NCBI GenBank assembly: GCA_965247145.1
Contig: CBDFGH010000006.1
Location: 104,778-168,777, forward strand
Reading direction: 5' to 3'
Length of the DNA: 64,000 nucleotides
DNA from: Rickettsiales bacterium
GTDB lineage: Bacteria > Pseudomonadota > Alphaproteobacteria > Rickettsiales > JAIXRX01
Each line of letters begins with the position of its first letter. Position 1 is the first letter of the stretch. Shown here piece by piece: positions 7,822 through 63,186 of the stretch. The position numbers and the translations under genes are program-made. Below the pieces are notes generated by a model, which saw only the letters and a program-made list of their open reading frames with translations, had not been told where the DNA came from and did not search any database.

Positions 7822-8986
7822 TCACGCATCCACCAGCAAAATCTGCAGTTCCGGCGCGAGTTCGTCGAGGATGCCGTGCGGGTCGTCCAGGCGGGTGGTG
7901 AGGGTTTGGACGGCGGCGGCGCCCATGGCCACCCCAAGTGCGGCGGCGCGCGGCAGCGGGAAGCCGCGCAGATAGCCCGCCAGGAATCCGGCGAAGCTCG
8001 CATCCCCCGCCCCGGTGGGGGTTGGTGATCCGGTCTTTCGGCACATGCATCACGCTCACATGATAGGCGCGTTCGGGCATCACGATGATCGCGCCTTCGT
8101 CTCCGCGCGTGATGAAGGCGCAGGGCGGGTCTTCGGTTTCCAGGTCGCGCGCCAGCATCGCTTCCCGCTGCAAGGTCAGGTCGAGTTGCAGATCGGCGAT
8201 GGTTTTCTGCAAGGTCTGGCCGGAGCCATAGATCTCGCGCAGTTCCGATTCGTTGCCCAGAATCAGTTGCGCGCGGCTGCGGATGAGCGCGCGCACCTGC
8301 TCGCGGTGCGCCTCCGGCAGCGGGCGGCGGGTGGGCAAGGTTAGCCACAGATCGCAATGATATTCTTCCGAAAGACGCAGTAATTTTTCCGGCACGTCGC
8401 GGCTGAATTTATTGAAGGTGCTGGCGGCGAACAGCACCACGTCCGAGGCGTGGATCAGCATATCGGGGATCATCTCGGCGCTTAGCCAGCGGCGCGCATG
8501 CCCGTCATCCAGCGTGATGGTGCGGCTTTGACCGTTTCCGTCCACCAACACGCAGGCGGTGGCGTGGGTGGGCAGCACCATTTCACCCGCCTCGTTGGTA
8601 ATCTCGGGGTTGGGCAACAAGGGTGGTTCGATGAGGAACACACCTGCTTTGTGATAAGAATCGCGGATCGCCGCGCTGTGGGACGAATCGCCGATGATGC
8701 CGAGCAATTGGCATTCCGCACGCTCCGGCAGCAGGGAAGCGAGCGTGTAAAGCGTATTGCCTGCGCTCCCGCCCGCGCAGGCGATGATATGGGCGGGATC
8801 GAGCGCATCGAGGAATTGCTGGCGCATTTCGGGGAAAGGGGAAATATCGCGCTTGGCGCCGGGGGGCAGGTTGAAATCCGCCAGCAGCGGCTTCAGTTTC
8901 GGCTGATCGGCCTCCCGCGTGACGAGATCGATGCTGTGATAATCCAGCGAGAAAATACGGGTGCGGCGGGGCGCGCTACGGGGCAT
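7822..8986 (-). pseudogene. PfkB-family carbohydrate/nucleoside kinase, disrupted by a 1-nt frameshift
   Basis: The N-terminal 320 or so aa lie in the frame of track ORF 7736..8986. The PfkB signature-2 region (PTGAGDASFAGFLAGYL) lies in the frame of ORF 7822..8046. The frames meet at a G5 run on the plus strand at 8017-8021. After the shift the long ORF reads R/P/G-rich nonsense. Confidence 0.7.
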
Positions 8987-9077
8987 GCGGCTTGTCAGTC
9001 TCCGAAATGTCTTCTCTCGCGAGTTTGACTGAAAAACGCGGGCGGCTCAAGGTAGCTTTTCAACAATCGTGCAGTAA

Positions 9078-9881
9078 TTATCCGTTCAGCAAATCCAACA
9101 CTGAAGCCTGCAGCCGATTGCCCTGCGCGGCGGCGGCTGTGCTGGATTGCTGGTTGAGCAGCAAGCCGATGTTCAGATTGTCGCTCTCGCTCAAGCTGGA
9201 CCGCGCCGCATCTTGATTCTGCAAAGCGGAAGCAAGCGTGGCGGAGGCCAGGCTGCGGTCTTCCACTTGGGCGGCGATGTTGTTTTTACCCGCACCGATA
9301 CCATCCAATGCATCGTCGCTCAACGTCAGCGCCTTGTTGGCGGCGGAGATGCTGGTGAGATCGAAGTTCTGGCCTTACAGCAGCGTGAAGCTGCGCAGAT
9401 CGGGCAAGGTGATGCTGAGCGCATTGGAGATCGCGCTATTGCCAAAGCCACCATCCAGCAACGCATTGTTTTGGAAAGTATGGGAGGAAACCGCCGCATC
9501 GGACGCTTGAAGCAGAGCGTCGGCCTGTTTCTGCAAACCCTGGCGCTGCGCCTGAGTGGTTTCGGATTTGGCGGCTTGTGCGGCCAATGCCTGCAATTGC
9601 TCGAACTGGGTTTGCACCGCATCCGCGCCCTGGCCCGCCACTTGCAGCAAGCTGCCGGATTGCGCAATCTGGTTCGAAGCGGTGCGCAGTGCAAGCGCGT
9701 TGCTTTGCAGATCGATCGCCTGACTCAGCCCGCCAATATCCACAGCCGATGGGAACAAGCGTTCTCCGCCATTCACCCCGAGCAACGTGGCGATAACCGA
9801 CGATTTGCCCGTGCTGCCGGTGGCGCGGTTTCCGCTGGATGAAAATACGTTGGCCAGATCCACTAGCGATGTAATCGCCAT
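9078..9881 (-). pseudogene. Short flagellin-like protein (267 codons) interrupted by one in-frame TAA
   Basis: Track ORFs 9375..9881 and 9078..9323 are in the same frame (558 nt apart) and are separated only by TAA at 9375-9377. The N part resembles flagellin D0/D1 (LRTASNQIAQSGSLLQVAGQGADAVQTQFEQLQALAAQAA...FQNNALLDGGF). The C part resembles the flagellin C-terminus (LLLNQQSSTAAAAQGNRLQASVLDLL). A strong RBS, GAGGGAGA, precedes the ATG at 9881. Confidence 0.65.
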
Positions 9882-36955: not shown

Positions 36956-37714
36956 ATGAACTGGTTCTCCTCTCTTCGCCCCAAGCCCGCGCGCCCGGAT
37001 ATGCCGGAGGCGCCGCCGCGCCATGTCGCCATCATCATGGACGGCAACGGGCGCTGGGCGAAGAGCCGCCACCTGCCGCGCAGCGCCGGTCACCAGCGCG
37101 GGGCGGAATCTCTGCGCCGTACCCTGCGCGCCTGTCATGCCGCCGGGGTGCAATGCCTCACGGTCTATGCCTTCTCGGCCGAAAACTGGCAGCGCCCGGC
37201 TTCCGAGGTCAAGGATCTGATGGGCTTGCTGCAGGCTTATCTGACGCGTGAGGTCGAAGAATTGCACGGCAACGGCGTGCGCCTGCGCTTCATCGGAGAC
37301 CGGTCGGCGCTGGATGCAGGCATCATCCGCCAGTTGGAAGCGGTCGAGGAAAAAACGCGCGGCAACGAAGATTTCCACCTGACCATCGCGCTGAGTTATG
37401 GCGCGCGGCAGGAACTGGCCCATGCGGCGCAAAGCCTCGCGCATGAAGTGGCCAGCGGTACTCTGAAGCTGGAAGAGGTGACGGAAGAAGCCCTGGCCGC
37501 GCGCCTCTACACCGCCGACCTGCCAGATCTCGATCTCGTCATCCGCACCGGGGGCGAGCATCGTTTGAGTAATTTCCTGCTGTGGCAGGCGGCCTATGCC
37601 GAATTATATTTCACCAATACGTTGTGGCCCGATTTCGGCGAGGAAGATCTGCACGCCGCGCTGAATGATTTCAGCCGCCGCGAACGCCGCTTCGGAAAGA
37701 CGGAAGCGGCATGA
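36956..37714 (+). CDS. uppS: Undecaprenyl diphosphate synthase
   Basis: HVAIIMDGNGRWA and the RTGGEHRLSNFLLWQ signature. Confidence 0.95.
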   Translation: MNWFSSLRPKPARPDMPEAPPRHVAIIMDGNGRWAKSRHLPRSAGHQRGAESLRRTLRACHAAGVQCLTVYAFSAENWQRPASEVKDLMGLLQAYLTREVEELHGNGVRLRFIGDRSALDAGIIRQLEAVEEKTRGNEDFHLTIALSYGARQELAHAAQSLAHEVASGTLKLEEVTEEALAARLYTADLPDLDLVIRTGGEHRLSNFLLWQAAYAELYFTNTLWPDFGEEDLHAALNDFSRRERRFGKTEAA

Positions 37715-37734
37715 TGGAAGATGATATGAAAAAA

Positions 37735-37860
37735 CCCTCCCCCCTCGAAGGGGGGAGGCCGGGAGGGGGTGGAGCCGCGAGCAACAGAGCCAGCCGCCCC
37801 ACCCCCACCCTACCCTTCGTCGCCCCTGCGACTCAGCCCCTCAAGGGGAAGGGAATCATC
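37735..37860. repeat. G/C-rich palindromic repeat block lying between uppS and the conserved part of cdsA
   Basis: CCCTCCCCCCTCGAAGGGGGGAGG (37735-37758), the CCTGCGACT core (37825-37833) and CCCCTCAAGGGG (37834-37853 region). Confidence 0.7.
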
Positions 37861-37898
37861 CACGTTCCAGCCTGAAATCGCGCATCCTCTCCGCGCTG

Positions 37899-38519
37899 GT
37901 GATGGTGCCGTTGGCGGTGGGATGGGCGTTGTCGCCGCATTGGCTGTTTACGGCGGGTCTGGTCGCGCTCACTTTGCTGCTGTGGTGGGAATGGTGGGGG
38001 ATTGCGCGGAAGACGAGCATGGCGCTGGCGCTGTTCGGCATGCCCTATATCGGCCTCACCGCCGCCGCTTTGTACGACATGCACGCCCATGCGACATCGA
38101 CCCTGCACCCGAACGCACCGCTCGGCCCGATGATCGTGCTGGGTACCGCGCTGCTATTGAGCGTAATCGACGTCTCGGCCTTCATCGCAGGCAAAACCAT
38201 CGGCGGGCCGAAGCTCGCCCCACGCATCAGCCCCGGCAAGACCTGGGCAGGTTTGCTGGGCGCGATGCTGTGCTGCGGGCTGGTGCTGATGCTTACGCAC
38301 CGCCATATACCCGCTTTGGGTATGGTGCTCGGCGGCTATCTCCTCGCCATCGTGGCCCAAATCGGCGATTTGTTCGAATCCTGGGTGAAGCGCCGCGCGG
38401 GCGTAAAGGATTCCGGCCGCCTCATCCCCGGCCATGGCGGCTTGCTCGACCGGCTGGACGGCTACCTCACTGCCGTGCCGATGATCTGGCTGTGGCTCAG
38501 CTGGAAAGGCGTGCTGTGA
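37899..38519 (+). CDS. cdsA: Phosphatidate cytidylyltransferase (start codon problematic, see findings)
   Basis: C-terminal signature SWVKRRAGVKDSGRLIPGHGGLLDRLD. The first canonical start in frame is GTG 37899 / ATG 37902. The conserved N-terminal motif LKSRILSALV is encoded upstream of it, at 37872-37901. Confidence 0.8.
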   Translation: MMVPLAVGWALSPHWLFTAGLVALTLLLWWEWWGIARKTSMALALFGMPYIGLTAAALYDMHAHATSTLHPNAPLGPMIVLGTALLLSVIDVSAFIAGKTIGGPKLAPRISPGKTWAGLLGAMLCCGLVLMLTHRHIPALGMVLGGYLLAIVAQIGDLFESWVKRRAGVKDSGRLIPGHGGLLDRLDGYLTAVPMIWLWLSWKGVL

Positions 38520-39685
38520 GCCCTGCCCCCCAGCGCGTCACGCTCCTTGGCGCGACCGGTTCCATCGGGCAAAGCGCGCTGCGCGTGATCGCGCATGCGG
38601 GCGCGGCTTTCCGGGTAAGCGCAATGACGGCGCAGGATAAAGCGGCCGAACTCGCCGCCCTCGCCCGCCAATGGCAGCCCGAATTCGTCGCCATCGGCAA
38701 TCCGGCGCATTACGCCGCGCTGAAAGAAGCGCTCGGCGGCACCGGCATCGAAGTGGCCGCCGGGCCGGAAGCGCTGGTCGAAGCGGCACGGCGGGAAACC
38801 GATATCGTGGTGGCCGGCATCGTGGGCGCGGCGGGGCTGGGCCCGACCATGGCCGCGCTCGCCCCGGGCCGCCGTTTGCTGCTGGCCAACAAGGAATGTC
38901 TGGTCTGTGCCGGGCCGCTGTTCATGGCGCGGGTGCGCGAGACGGGCACGCTGCTGCTGCCGGTGGATTCGGAACATAACGCGATCTTCCAACTGTTCGA
39001 CCCCGCGCGGGCGAGCGAAGTGGAAAGCATCACGCTCACCGCCTCCGGCGGCCCGTTCCGCGATTGGAGCCTGGCGCGCATGGCCACCGCCACCCCCGCC
39101 CAGGCCGTGGCCCACCCGACCTGGAGCATGGGCGCGAAGATTTCGGTCGATTCGGCGACGATGATGAATAAGGGGCTGGAGGCGATCGAGGCCTTTCACC
39201 TGTTCCCGCTTGCGCCCGATCAAATCCGCATCGTCGTGCACCCCCAATCGGTGGTGCATGGTTTCGTGAGTTTCCGCGACGGCAGCACGCTGGCGCATTT
39301 GAGCGGCACGCAGATGAGCGTGCCCATCGCGCATGCCATGCACTGGCCCCACCGCGGCCCCTGCCCCACTCCGGCGCTGGATCTCACGCAACTCGGCACG
39401 CTTACCTTTGAAGCGCCGGACGAGACGCGATTCTCCGCTTTGCGCCTCGCCCGCGAAGCACTCACCGCCGGAGCAGCCGCCCAGCTGGCGCTGAATGCGG
39501 CAAACGAAGTGGCGGTGGCGGCGTTTCTCGAAGGCCGCCTAAGCTTCACCGGCATCGCCGAATTGGTGGAAGAAACACTCGCCGCTTTGCCCGGCACGAC
39601 GCCCGCTACGCTGGAAGATGTGCTGGCGATGGATGCGGCCATCCGCACCGATGCCACCCACCGCCTCGCCCGCCTCGCCGCCTGA
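38516..39685 (+). CDS. dxr: 1-deoxy-D-xylulose 5-phosphate reductoisomerase
   Basis: The GTG at 38516 overlaps the cdsA stop (GTGA). Motifs LLGATGSIG, LANKE and DSEHNAIFQ are present. The track ORF 37769..39685 is an upstream read-through of this frame. Confidence 0.93.
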   Translation: MSPAPQRVTLLGATGSIGQSALRVIAHAGAAFRVSAMTAQDKAAELAALARQWQPEFVAIGNPAHYAALKEALGGTGIEVAAGPEALVEAARRETDIVVAGIVGAAGLGPTMAALAPGRRLLLANKECLVCAGPLFMARVRETGTLLLPVDSEHNAIFQLFDPARASEVESITLTASGGPFRDWSLARMATATPAQAVAHPTWSMGAKISVDSATMMNKGLEAIEAFHLFPLAPDQIRIVVHPQSVVHGFVSFRDGSTLAHLSGTQMSVPIAHAMHWPHRGPCPTPALDLTQLGTLTFEAPDETRFSALRLAREALTAGAAAQLALNAANEVAVAAFLEGRLSFTGIAELVEETLAALPGTTPATLEDVLAMDAAIRTDATHRLARLAA

Positions 39686-47407: not shown

Positions 47408-47427
47408 GTCCGCATAATCTTCGCTTT

Positions 47428-47504
47428 GTCATTCCAGCGAAAGCTGGAACCCAGTCTTTACCCACCATTCAAAATTACTGAATCCCAGCTTTCGCTGGGA
47501 TGAC
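47428..47504. repeat. REP-like inverted repeat (GTCATTCCAGCGAAAGCTGGAACCCAG / CTGAATCCCAGCTTTCGCTGGGATGAC)
   Basis: Arms at 47428-47454 and 47478-47504, directly after lpxI. Confidence 0.8.
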
Positions 47505-47524
47505 AGCATTTGTCGACCACCCAT

Positions 47525-52525: not shown

Positions 52526-52542
52526 AGGTAGTTCCAACTGAC

Positions 52543-52647
52543 TCCCTCTCCCTAGAAGGGGGAGGGTTGGGAGGGGGTGACTACCCACAAGCGCTGGCGT
52601 TCGTTGCGGCTCACCCTCTCCCTGCCCTCTCCCTTCTCAGGGAGAGG
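52543..52647. repeat. G/C-rich palindromic repeat block upstream of recG
   Basis: CTCCCTCTCCCTAGAAGGGGGAGGG (52543-52567) and CCTCTCCCTTCTCAGGGAGAGG (52626-52647). Confidence 0.6.
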
Positions 52648-52718
52648 AGATACTTCTATGTGGCACCCCGGATGCGATTTGTCATCGTTTCGTCATACGA
52701 TTTGGGTAGAATACGGGC

Positions 52719-60870: not shown

Positions 60871-63186
60871 ATGAATGCCCCCGCCCGCACCGAATCCGCG
60901 AAACTCTACGACCAGATCGACGGCTCCGCCGCCATGGCGAAGGAGTTTGGATTGAAGGAGGAGGAATATGCGAAAGTCCTGAGCATCCTCGGGCGCACGC
61001 CGAACATGACCGAACTGGGCATCTTCTCGGTGATGTGGAGCGAGCATTGCTCGTATAAAACCACGCGCAAGCACCTCTCCAAACTCCCCACCAAGGCCCC
61101 TTGGGTCATCTGCGGCCCGGGCGAGAATGCGGGCGTGATCGATATCGGGGACGGTCAGGCGGCGATCTTCAAGATGGAGTCGCACAACCACCCCAGCTAC
61201 ATCGAACCCTACCAGGGTGCGGCCACCGGCGTCGGCGGCATTCTGCGCGACGTCTTCACCATGGGCGCACGGCCCGTGGCGAATCTGAACGCGCTGCGCT
61301 TCGGCTCGCCGGATCATGCGAAAACCCGCCACCTCGTTTCCGGCGTCGTCGCTGGCATCGGCGGCTACGGGAATTGCGTGGGCGTGCCCACCGTGGGCGG
61401 CGAATGCAGCTTCCATGAAAGCTACAACGGCAACATCCTGGTCAACGCCATGAATGTCGGCGTGGCGGATGCGGATAAGATTTTCTATTCCACGGCGGCG
61501 GGCATCGGCAATCCGGTCATCTATGTCGGCAGCAAAACCGGGCGGGACGGCATACATGGCGCGACCATGGCCAGCACAGAATTCACCGAAGGCATGGAAG
61601 AAAAGCGCCCCACCGTGCAGGTGGGCGACCCCTTCACCGAAAAGCTGCTGATCGAAGCCTGCCTGGAATTGATGGCGACAGACGCCATCATCGCCATCCA
61701 GGACATGGGCGCGGCGGGCCTCACCTCCTCCAGCCTCGAGATGGCGGGCAAAGGCGAACTCGGCATCGAACTCGCGATGGACAAAGTTCCCGCCCGCGAG
61801 ACGGGCATGACCCCGTATGAATTCATGCTCTCCGAAAGCCAGGAACGCATGCTGATGATTCTGAAGCCGGAAAAGCAGGAAATGGCGCGCGCGATCTTCG
61901 AGAAATGGGGCCTGGATTTCGCCACCATCGGCACGCTCACCGACACCGGTCGCCTCGTCCTCACCATGCATGGCGAGATCGCCTGCGACATTCCCGTAGG
62001 CCCACTCAGCCACGACGCGCCGATTTACGACCGTCCGTGGGTCATCGAAACCTGGGAGACTAGGCAGTCGCAAGTCGCAAGCCGCAAGTCGCAAGGTAGT
62101 GATGATGCGAAACCAAATGACAAAGACACCCAAGCCCCCCCTGCGACTTGCGACTTGCGACTTGCGACTACCAGCGCCCCGATCATCGACAGCCTCAAAA
62201 CCCTCATCGCCTGCCCCGATCTCGCCAGCAAACGCTGGATCTGGGAGCAGTATGACCGCATGGTCGGCAACGATACGGTGGCCAGCTCCGGCAGCGCGGA
62301 CGCCGCCATCGTGCGCGTGCACGGCACCGGCAAAGCGCTGGCGATGACCACCGATTGCACCCCGCGCTATGTCGCGGCCGACCCCCGCCTGGGCGGCATG
62401 CAGGCCGTCGTCGAATCCTGGCGCAACCTCACCGCCGTGGGCGCAACCCCGCTCGCCATCACCAACTGCCTGAATTTCGGCAACCCCGAAAAACCCGAAG
62501 TGATGGGCCAGATCGTCGGCGCGATCGAAGGCATCGCCGAAGCCTGCCGCGCGCTGGACTACCCCGTCGTCTCCGGCAACGTCTCGCTCTACAACGACAC
62601 CAACGGCCAGAGCGTGCAGCCCACCCCGGCCATCGGCGGTGTCGGCGTATTGAAAGACGTGACGAAACGCACCGGCAACGCCGTGACCGAAGAAGGCCTC
62701 GCGCTGATCCTCCTCGGTGAAACCCAAGGCCATCTCGGCAGCAGCCTCTATCTCCGCGAAATCCAGCGCCGCGAAGACGGCGCGCCCCCGCCCATCGACC
62801 TCGCGCAGGAACGCAAAACCGGCGATTTCGTGCGCGCCCAGATCGTCGCGGGCCACGTCGCCGCCTGCCATGATGTGAGCGACGGCGGACTTCTCGTCGC
62901 CATCGCCGAAATGCTCATGCCCCACGGCATCGGCGCGCATGTCACGCTGCCCGAAGGCCCGGCCCACGCCATAGCGTTCGGCGAAGACCAGGGCCGTTAC
63001 ATTCTGGCCGTGAAAGACGCCAACGTGCTTCTTGCCACTGCCCAATCCGCCGACATCTCCGCCGTCCAACTCGGCACCACCAGCGGCACTGAACTCGGCG
63101 TCGAAGACCATGGCGAGATCAATGTTAAATCCCTCCGCAGCGCCAACGAAGCCTGGCTGCCGGAATATATGGCGGGGGCGAAGTGA
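60871..63186 (+). CDS. purL: Phosphoribosylformylglycinamidine synthase subunit PurL
   Basis: WSEHCSYK and [25 protein letters not shown] motifs. I chose the ATG at 60871, after AAGAGGA, because the track start at 60847 lies in the repeat. Confidence 0.95.
62063..62172. repeat. In-frame hairpin element inside purL built from heptamer microsatellites
   Basis: The left arm, GGCAGTCGCAAGTCGCAAGCCGCAAGTCGCAAGG (62063-62096), is four GTCGCAA-type heptamers. The right arm, CCCTGCGACTTGCGACTTGCGACTTGCGACTACC (62139-62172), is its reverse complement at 31 of 34 positions. The loop is 42 nt. Confidence 0.9.

Follow-up and report, generated by a model that had tools for sequence, protein, structure and literature searches.

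The uppS–cdsA–dxr locus

The window analysed here, a 64,000-nucleotide stretch of contig CBDFGH010000006.1 from the assembly of a Rickettsiales bacterium (GCA_965247145.1), carries the gene cdsA between uppS and dxr, and the first codons of this cdsA are interrupted by a G/C-rich palindromic repeat of about 131 nt. In the assembly, the start codon coupled to uppS lies on one side of the repeat and the conserved N-terminus of CdsA lies on the other side, in a different reading frame. Comparison with related loci, with further copies of the repeat and with other genes of the same assembly suggests that the repeat was inserted in frame into the CdsA leader and that the frame break is probably a one-base error of the assembly. 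The genome comprises 2.36 Mb in 11 contigs, with 59% GC, has only distant relatives among species representatives and encodes a single copy of cdsA. The gene order frr-uppS-cdsA-dxr is the same in the relatives. The features of the locus are the following:

36956..37714, plus strand: uppS, undecaprenyl-diphosphate synthase of 252 aa, taken from the list of open reading frames (ORFs), with its TGA stop at 37712-37714; PF01255 is recorded on the uppS orthologue of the relatives
37711..37716, plus strand: ATGATG, the ancestral, translationally coupled start of cdsA; the overlap of ATG 37711 with the uppS stop reads ATGA, and a second ATG begins at 37714
37711..37875, plus strand: 54-codon ORF (leader MMEDDMKK, then the repeat in the 'SPLEGGR...PTPTLP...PLKG' frame), ending at TGA 37873-37875
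37729..37859, no strand assigned: palindromic repeat of about 131 nt, supported by copy alignment, RNA fold and the empty sites of two related loci (L032 and L033)
37860..37898, plus strand: 13 codons, PRSSLKSRILSAL, conserved N-terminus of CdsA and start of its first transmembrane helix (TM1), in the cdsA frame, with no start codon upstream
37899..38519, plus strand: cdsA as callable from the assembly, giving 206 aa from GTG 37899 or 205 aa from ATG 37902; PF01148 is recorded
38516..39685, plus strand: dxr, coupled to cdsA by a GTGA overlap; PF02670, PF08436 and PF13288 are recorded on orthologues

The translation of the 54-codon ORF from ATG 37711 is MMEDDMKKPSPLEGGRPGGGGAASNRASRPTPTLPFVAPATQPLKGKGIIHVPA. 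The cdsA frame (LKSRILSALVMVPLAVG; ...HPRSSLKSRILSALVMVPLAVG...) is open from the stop at 37722-37724 onward, and a codon-by-codon listing from this stop to GTG 37899 contains no ATG, GTG or TTG; the only near-cognate codons in this interval are CTG 37872, ATC 37884 and CTG 37896. A first, sequence-only reading of the window had described exactly this arrangement, namely (i) an ATG overlapping the uppS stop as ATGA, whose frame crosses the repeat and stops at 37873-37875, and (ii) a CdsA N-terminal motif encoded in another frame, with no canonical start before GTG 37899; the ORF list and the codon listing, respectively, agree with it. The distance from ATG 37711 to CTG 37872 is 161 nt, i.e. 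2 modulo 3, so that the two frames differ by -1 and the window sequence is either one base short of being in frame or two bases too long. Shine-Dalgarno-like sequences were found ahead of none of the candidate cdsA starts. The public gene call of cdsA (P0002) is the 205-aa form.

Structure and copies of the palindromic repeat

The repeat is led by an A6 run (37729-37734), which is followed by (i) a hairpin, H1 (37736-37758; CCTCCCCCC/GGGGGGAGG), (ii) a central stem in which positions 37761-37772 pair with 37799-37810 (GGGAGGGGGTGG / CCACCCCCACCC), and (iii) a second hairpin, H2 (37813-37853; CCCTTC..CCCC/GGGGAAGGG, with arms CCCTTCCCC/GGGGAAGGG), which in the cdsA copy is broken up by an extra 18-nt mini-hairpin, GTCGCCCCTGCGACTCAG, at 37819-37836. 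This mini-hairpin stands in the left arm of H2 and consists of GTCGC-CCCT-GCGAC followed by TCAG; its GCGAC/GTCGC units resemble the heptamer-hairpin repeats of purL (62063-62172). The RNA fold of the repeat has an energy of -91.9 kcal/mol (z = -3.5), equalled by 0 of 200 shuffles. The paired arms agree in homopolymer length (6C/6G, 5G/5C, 4C/4G), and all three reading frames are free of stops across the repeat. The 148-nt interval of the repeat holds 3 of the 1856 homopolymers of at least 6 bases in the genome, which is a 26-fold enrichment.

A profile built from four copies matches both strands and detects 52 loci in the genome, counted at E <= 1e-3 and near full length, 45 of which are intergenic or at gene edges and four of which are in frame inside genes. 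The closest copies of the cdsA repeat are located at C7:118526-118645 and C10:79270-79390 (nhmmer E 1e-28 to 1e-31), and partial copies lie within the window at 655-760 and 52540-52660. The description of the G/C-rich block as a repeat in the first reading was thus borne out. An A-rich T(A/G)AA(A/G) motif recurs on the 5' side of the copies, and TAAAG or TAAAT is found 3' of several copies and is absent 3' of the cdsA copies; that TAAAG-like flanks might represent a terminal or target-site signal is only suggestive. When the repeat peptide was searched for in other proteins (query: residues 1-56 of P0005, the CdsA of a relative described below), only P0005 itself matched.

The composition of the repeat bears on a highly improbable alternative, in which the frameshift is real and is corrected during expression, either by transcriptional slippage adding a base at the A6, C6 or G6 run or by a -1 ribosomal slip at ATG AAA AAA before H1, the frame correction restoring a 269-aa protein in a fraction of the products. 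The shift needed is indeed -1, equivalent to one additional nucleotide in the mRNA; a GC hairpin of 9 bp begins 1-2 nt past the A6 run, the repeat also has runs of G6 and C6, and as all frames are open across the repeat, any slip site would do. However, the canonical X XXY YYZ heptamer is absent from the frame of ATG 37711 (37711-37875), the 1-2 nt that separate the A6 run from the hairpin do not suffice for classical -1 frameshifting, in which the structure lies 5-9 nt downstream, and runs of six are poor substrates for transcriptional slippage. Moreover, an essential enzyme would hang on a low-efficiency event, and the relative that bears the same repeat is in frame and needs no shift. We judge it very unlikely that the one-base deficit is real and that a selfish repeat is the place where the frame of CdsA is corrected, through slippage at these runs or through a -1 slip; in that case, a recoding site in a core gene of lipid synthesis would owe its origin to a mobile palindromic element.

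Conservation of the CdsA N-terminus

The 119 best CdsA homologues were aligned and residues were then counted. The L-x-x-R-x-x-S segment encoded ahead of GTG 37899 aligns with the N-terminus of all 119 homologues, the Arg being present in 119/119, the Leu in 116/119 and the Ser in 112/119. The possibility, raised beforehand, that orthologues normally start at MVPLAVG was checked on the same set, in which 0 of 119 sequences start downstream of the motif. The leader ahead of the motif measures 3 to 77 residues (median 13). CdsA from T. maritima, which begins with MDDLKTRVITAS and to whose structures (PDB 4Q2E/4Q2G) a profile match was obtained, also has the motif. In addition, the window segment matches the PRSSLK of its three closest relatives, and the changes specific to the window in the 13 codons upstream of GTG 37899 amount to two synonymous ones and one at a variable residue, without signs of decay. 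The sequence-only reading had taken this motif as genuine coding sequence, and the alignment with all the homologues is in line with it. The remainder of the protein conforms to the family, phosphatidate cytidylyltransferase: the C-terminal catalytic signature of CdsA (S..KR....KD.....PGHGG..DR.D) is present, PF01148 is recorded on P0002 and on all the relatives, and K177, R178, K183, S185, P190-G194, D197, R198 and D200 are invariant in the alignment.

The motif is encoded at 37872-37898 and, as assembled, can be reached from no ATG, GTG or TTG. A start at GTG 37899 or ATG 37902 would remove the invariant Arg and most of TM1. Such a start is the core of a second alternative, which we consider unlikely: the frameshift would be real, ribosomes coupled to uppS would terminate at TGA 37873 and reinitiate 24-27 nt further on, at GTG 37899 or ATG 37902, and the product would be a CdsA of 205-206 aa that has lost the nine initial residues of TM1, the invariant Arg among them. 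This is the literal reading of the sequence and also the public gene call; furthermore, the distance from stop to start is short, only reinitiation could serve in the absence of a Shine-Dalgarno sequence, and the homopolymer lengths of the paired arms of the repeat are consistent with each other. In its milder form, this reading holds that CdsA functions after termination and reinitiation without its universally conserved N-terminal helix. Against it stand the absence of any homologue starting downstream of the motif, the invariance of the Arg, the reduction of TM1 to about 10 hydrophobic residues, the lack of decay in codons 37860-37898 and the fact that no second cdsA exists in the genome.

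Empty and filled sites in relatives

Three close CdsA relatives were retrieved by protein search. P0003 (223 aa, 86% identity) begins with MQPAPRSGLKARILSAL and shows an empty site, MQPAPRSGLK; P0004 (224 aa) begins with MMQAAPRSSLKARILSAL and shows an empty site, MMQAAPRSSLK; P0005 (269 aa, 84% identity), encoded on a contig of a metagenome-assembled genome at NCBI, begins with MDNDLNTRTAGKASPLEGGRLEEGGATYSSARTSSPTPTPTLPPLGGGSSPRSSLKQRILSAL and has the repeat at the equivalent position, read in frame (...GKASPLEGGRLEEGGA...SPTPTPTLPPLGGGSSPRSSLKQRILSAL). At the DNA level, the start of cdsA in the empty sites L032 and L033 lies at the uppS stop, with PRS(S/G)LK four to five codons further on. 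L033, which has the same ATG arrangement as the window, encodes MMQAAPRSSLK; the junction reads TGATG in L032 and TAAATG in L031, the locus with the in-frame repeat. In more distant relatives, the cdsA start is also found at the uppS stop. The filled sites are those of the window and of L031, in which the repeat stands between the start and PRSSLK. The insertion of a repeat between the ancestral start and the CdsA N-terminus, as proposed in the first reading, is therefore borne out by the uppS-cdsA junction of the repeat-free relatives.

The peptide frame of ATG 37711 is that of L031 (SPLEGGR...PTPTLP...PL.G.G), with the difference that PRSSLK of the window is in the other frame. With one base added anywhere in 37725-37859, the protein measures exactly 269 aa, as does that of L031. 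Over cdsA and dxr, the DNA identity among the four loci is about 77-83%. A single, old ancestral insertion shared by the window and L031 would fit the quartet-informative sites given below and is not proven by them.

The same comparison bears on a third alternative, in which CdsA starts at the non-canonical codon CTG 37872, overlapping the stop of the leader ORF as CTGA, and so keeps LKSRILSAL. This codon lies directly ahead of the LK motif and its overlap with TGA 37873-37875 resembles the ATGA and GTGA couplings. Nevertheless, CTG is very rare as a bacterial start, no Shine-Dalgarno sequence is suitably spaced ahead of it, the upstream PRSS codons, which are conserved with the relatives, are left unexplained (although this conservation could be historical), and a leader precedes the motif in every close relative. 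Initiation at this CTG is scarcely credible.

In-frame copies elsewhere in the genome

The copy at C7:118526-118645 is placed like that of cdsA, just after the start of the second gene of a coupled pair. Indeed, murB (C7:117565-118650, minus strand) starts with a GTG that overlaps the murC stop (GTGA) and continues with about 51 aa encoded by a repeat of the same subfamily, read in the same frame as in cdsA, VKKNSSPLEGGRGEGGGATSTAPSRPTPAPPSPLKGEGVNSAPLKGEGVK... (SPLEGGRGEGGGA..PTPAPPSPLKGEG; SPLEGGR..PLKGEG). The match to the MurB model covers positions 7-301 of 303 and begins at residue 58. As the next canonical start is codon 87, well within the conserved domain, MurB must be translated through the repeat, in the peptide frame of the cdsA copy. 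The copy at C10:79270-79390 (minus strand) forms, again in this peptide frame, a C-terminal tail of about 47 aa in an OmpR-type response regulator, whose conserved part (IRTVRGLGY; ...IRTVRGLGYVM) ends before the repeat according to our reading of the motif. The tight subfamily of the repeat is thus found at gene junctions, namely after the cdsA start, after the murB start and at the 3' end of the regulator gene. The use of the same peptide frame in three gene contexts, at translationally coupled junctions, provides a small and testable clue to where such elements survive. Furthermore, the fact that the copy of the relative and the copy of murB have both been kept in frame speaks against termination and reinitiation in cdsA.

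Another copy of the repeat superfamily (C7:144531-144798) lies just upstream of a gene of 1074 aa, in which the coding signal begins about 36 codons ahead of the first canonical start; this may be another gene in the situation of cdsA.

Single-base frameshifts in the assembly

A scan for changes of frame, based on a codon-usage model trained on 682 long ORFs, recovered the normal programmed shift of prfB and many conserved genes with a break of one base. Apart from cdsA, conserved genes of the assembly are interrupted by at least 12 single-base frameshifts, and the pieces of such a gene match consecutive positions of the same family model. They include:

gpmI, C2:~296543: model positions 2-363 / 364-504 of 504
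pccB/mmdA, C2:~282301: model positions 5-152 / 153-512
sucB, C3:~122847: model positions 2-84 / 91-407
recG, C1:~63835: model positions ..310 / 316-704, with A6 in place of A5 inside the Walker A (GSGKT) motif
hisC, C6:~33050 and ~33532: three pieces and two breaks, model positions 3-118 / 130-307 / 317-359
sbp/cysP, C1:~62445: model positions 12-148 / 156-227
PfkB kinase, window 7822-9046, minus strand: break at the G5 run 8017-8021, PF00294 positions 91-244 / 255-298
scoA, C10: break at a C4 run
CsgG-like gene (C2:~419740), amine oxidase gene (C3:~109178) and RimK-associated gene (C6:~93505): similar breaks, judged by eye

In the PfkB-family sugar kinase, the minus strand reads AACCCCCACC, with one base inserted, and AACCCCACC would restore ..ITNPTGAGDA... 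The lesions with an obvious true reading are one-base changes in short runs (A5->A6, C4->C5, GG->GGG, CC->CCC, C5->C4) and comprise both insertions and deletions. They are partly clustered, those of recG and sbp being 1.4 kb apart and hisC having two. Premature in-frame stops within coding sequence were sought with a corresponding scan, which yielded essentially nothing but ordinary junctions between genes. The only plausible candidate, at window 9375-9881 and downstream on the minus strand (C6 minus-strand index ~120530), reads ...ITLPDLRSFTLL*GQNFDLTSISAANKALTLSDD..., with no start for 17 codons, and may be a real nonsense lesion, a case of readthrough or simply two genes.

The lesions are nearly all indels, and errors of sequencing or assembly account for this better than real pseudogenisation does, because the latter would also yield nonsense mutations. 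They are similar to the homopolymer indel errors of long-read or low-coverage metagenome assemblies, which are likewise one-base indels at short runs, partly clustered and without nonsense lesions, although recent real pseudogenisation would look similar gene by gene. The assembly therefore probably carries residual indel errors, and we infer that the frame break of cdsA is one of them. A codon-score screen for coding signal upstream of the first start recovered the prfB shift and sucB and did not flag cdsA, as only 13 codons are involved in this gene.

Probable in-frame insertion in the CdsA leader

Taken with the evidence from the relatives and from murB, these results make an in-frame insertion in the CdsA leader, comparable to those of Rickettsia palindromic elements (RPE) and hidden by a one-base deletion in the assembly, the probable explanation of the locus. 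A palindromic repeat of about 130 nt was inserted in the first codons of cdsA, between the start coupled to uppS and PRSSLK..R..S. The site is permissive, since the leader of CdsA varies in length and can thus tolerate an insertion. According to this explanation, the repeat would be read in frame in the living organism and would lengthen the N-terminal tail in the cytoplasm by about 45 residues rich in Gly, Pro and Ser, resulting in a CdsA of about 269 aa starting at ATG 37711 or 37714. The frame break of the window would be due to the loss of one base during sequencing or assembly, somewhere in 37725-37859; as all three frames are open across the repeat, the sequence does not pin the error to a position within this interval.

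A one-base error is favoured because the relative and murB read the repeat in frame and because the assembly has many 1-nt frameshifts. Among the three explanations offered in the sequence-only reading, the third, in which a 1-nt error conceals a repeat inserted in frame, has by far the strongest support on these grounds. The same reading had also stated that the insertion separates cdsA from its start: the insertion itself is real, as shown by the empty and filled sites, whereas the separation, as a biological fact, is probably an artefact.

Several points weigh against this explanation. (i) In principle, the organism could do without each of the other genes with a frameshift, and these could be recent real pseudogenes of a reduced genome; if they are, the argument from error is weaker and the cdsA shift could be real too, in favour of termination and reinitiation. 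(ii) As the paired arms match in run length, the error would have to lie in an unpaired part of the repeat or its border, namely the A6 run, the central loop, the 18-nt insert or the AATCAT 3' flank. (iii) Quartet sites group the window with L031 only modestly (42 vs 29 vs 24). (iv) Exact-protein look-ups of UppS and CdsA returned no second assembly of the species. Scans of genome and metagenome contigs with CdsA returned only distant relatives (<=62% identity), and G001, a genome of the same family (75% complete), is without the cdsA-dxr region.

Two candidate causes of the shift were rejected. A G missing from the H2 run GGGG (37845-37848), which is GGGGG in other copies, is countered by the compensatory CCCTTCCCC/GGGGAAGGG pair and by a gapless alignment to the consensus, and the length of the 18-nt insert is a multiple of three, so that this insert does not cause the shift.

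If the in-frame insertion is correctly deduced, the deposited 205-aa CdsA is a truncation caused by an assembly indel. At least a dozen similar one-base breaks in the assembly are prone to be misread as pseudogenes or split genes, and pseudogene calls in this genome need checking at the level of reads. The locus would then show cleanly that an essential membrane enzyme can tolerate an RPE-like repeat read in frame at its N-terminus, with empty sites and one filled site among the relatives and with murB as a second gene in the same genome, in an uncultured lineage of Alphaproteobacteria about which little is known.

Comparison with known repeats

By analogy, the cdsA insertion is of a known kind, similar to RPE and to miniature inverted-repeat transposable elements (MITE), and RPE appear to be the closest known phenomenon. 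RPE are repeats of about 150 bp that are found in frame in many unrelated genes (Ogata et al. 2000/2002, as reviewed in PMC10969869). Like them, the cdsA repeat is short (about 100-150 bp in both cases), hairpin-forming and present in multiple copies, some of which are read in frame in housekeeping genes, as in the cdsA of L031 and in murB, where they add a conserved peptide at permissive sites; it also shows presence/absence polymorphism between related genomes. In contrast to RPE, it is extremely rich in G/C homopolymers and lies mostly at gene boundaries. The two are likened by architecture and function only, and kinship in sequence with the Rickettsia RPE families is not expected.

Repeats of the REP/BIME and MITE types (ERIC, Correia, BOX, RUP) are also palindromic, have many dispersed copies and prefer gene boundaries, and they occasionally form translational fusions with flanking ORFs, as here (PMC10969869). 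Unlike MITE, the cdsA repeat has no clearly defined terminal inverted repeats or target-site duplications. A cognate transposase for the repeat was not identified in this analysis.

Within the same window, dnaE, which is an essential gene too, carries a hairpin repeat that measures about 105-130 nt and is read in frame. This repeat differs from that of cdsA in that it belongs to another sequence subfamily, occupies an internal surface-loop site instead of an N-terminal leader and is in frame as assembled; the cdsA-type profile gives a weak full-length match to it (E = 0.009).

Finally, the spacer between frr and uppS (window 36833-36925) contains an inverted repeat of the REP type (TGTCATCCCCCGCGCCAGCGGGGATCCAG ... 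CTGGATTCCCGCCGGCGCGGGAATGACA), which belongs to a GTCATCC..GGATGAC family with further members at 31649-31760 and 47427-47505.

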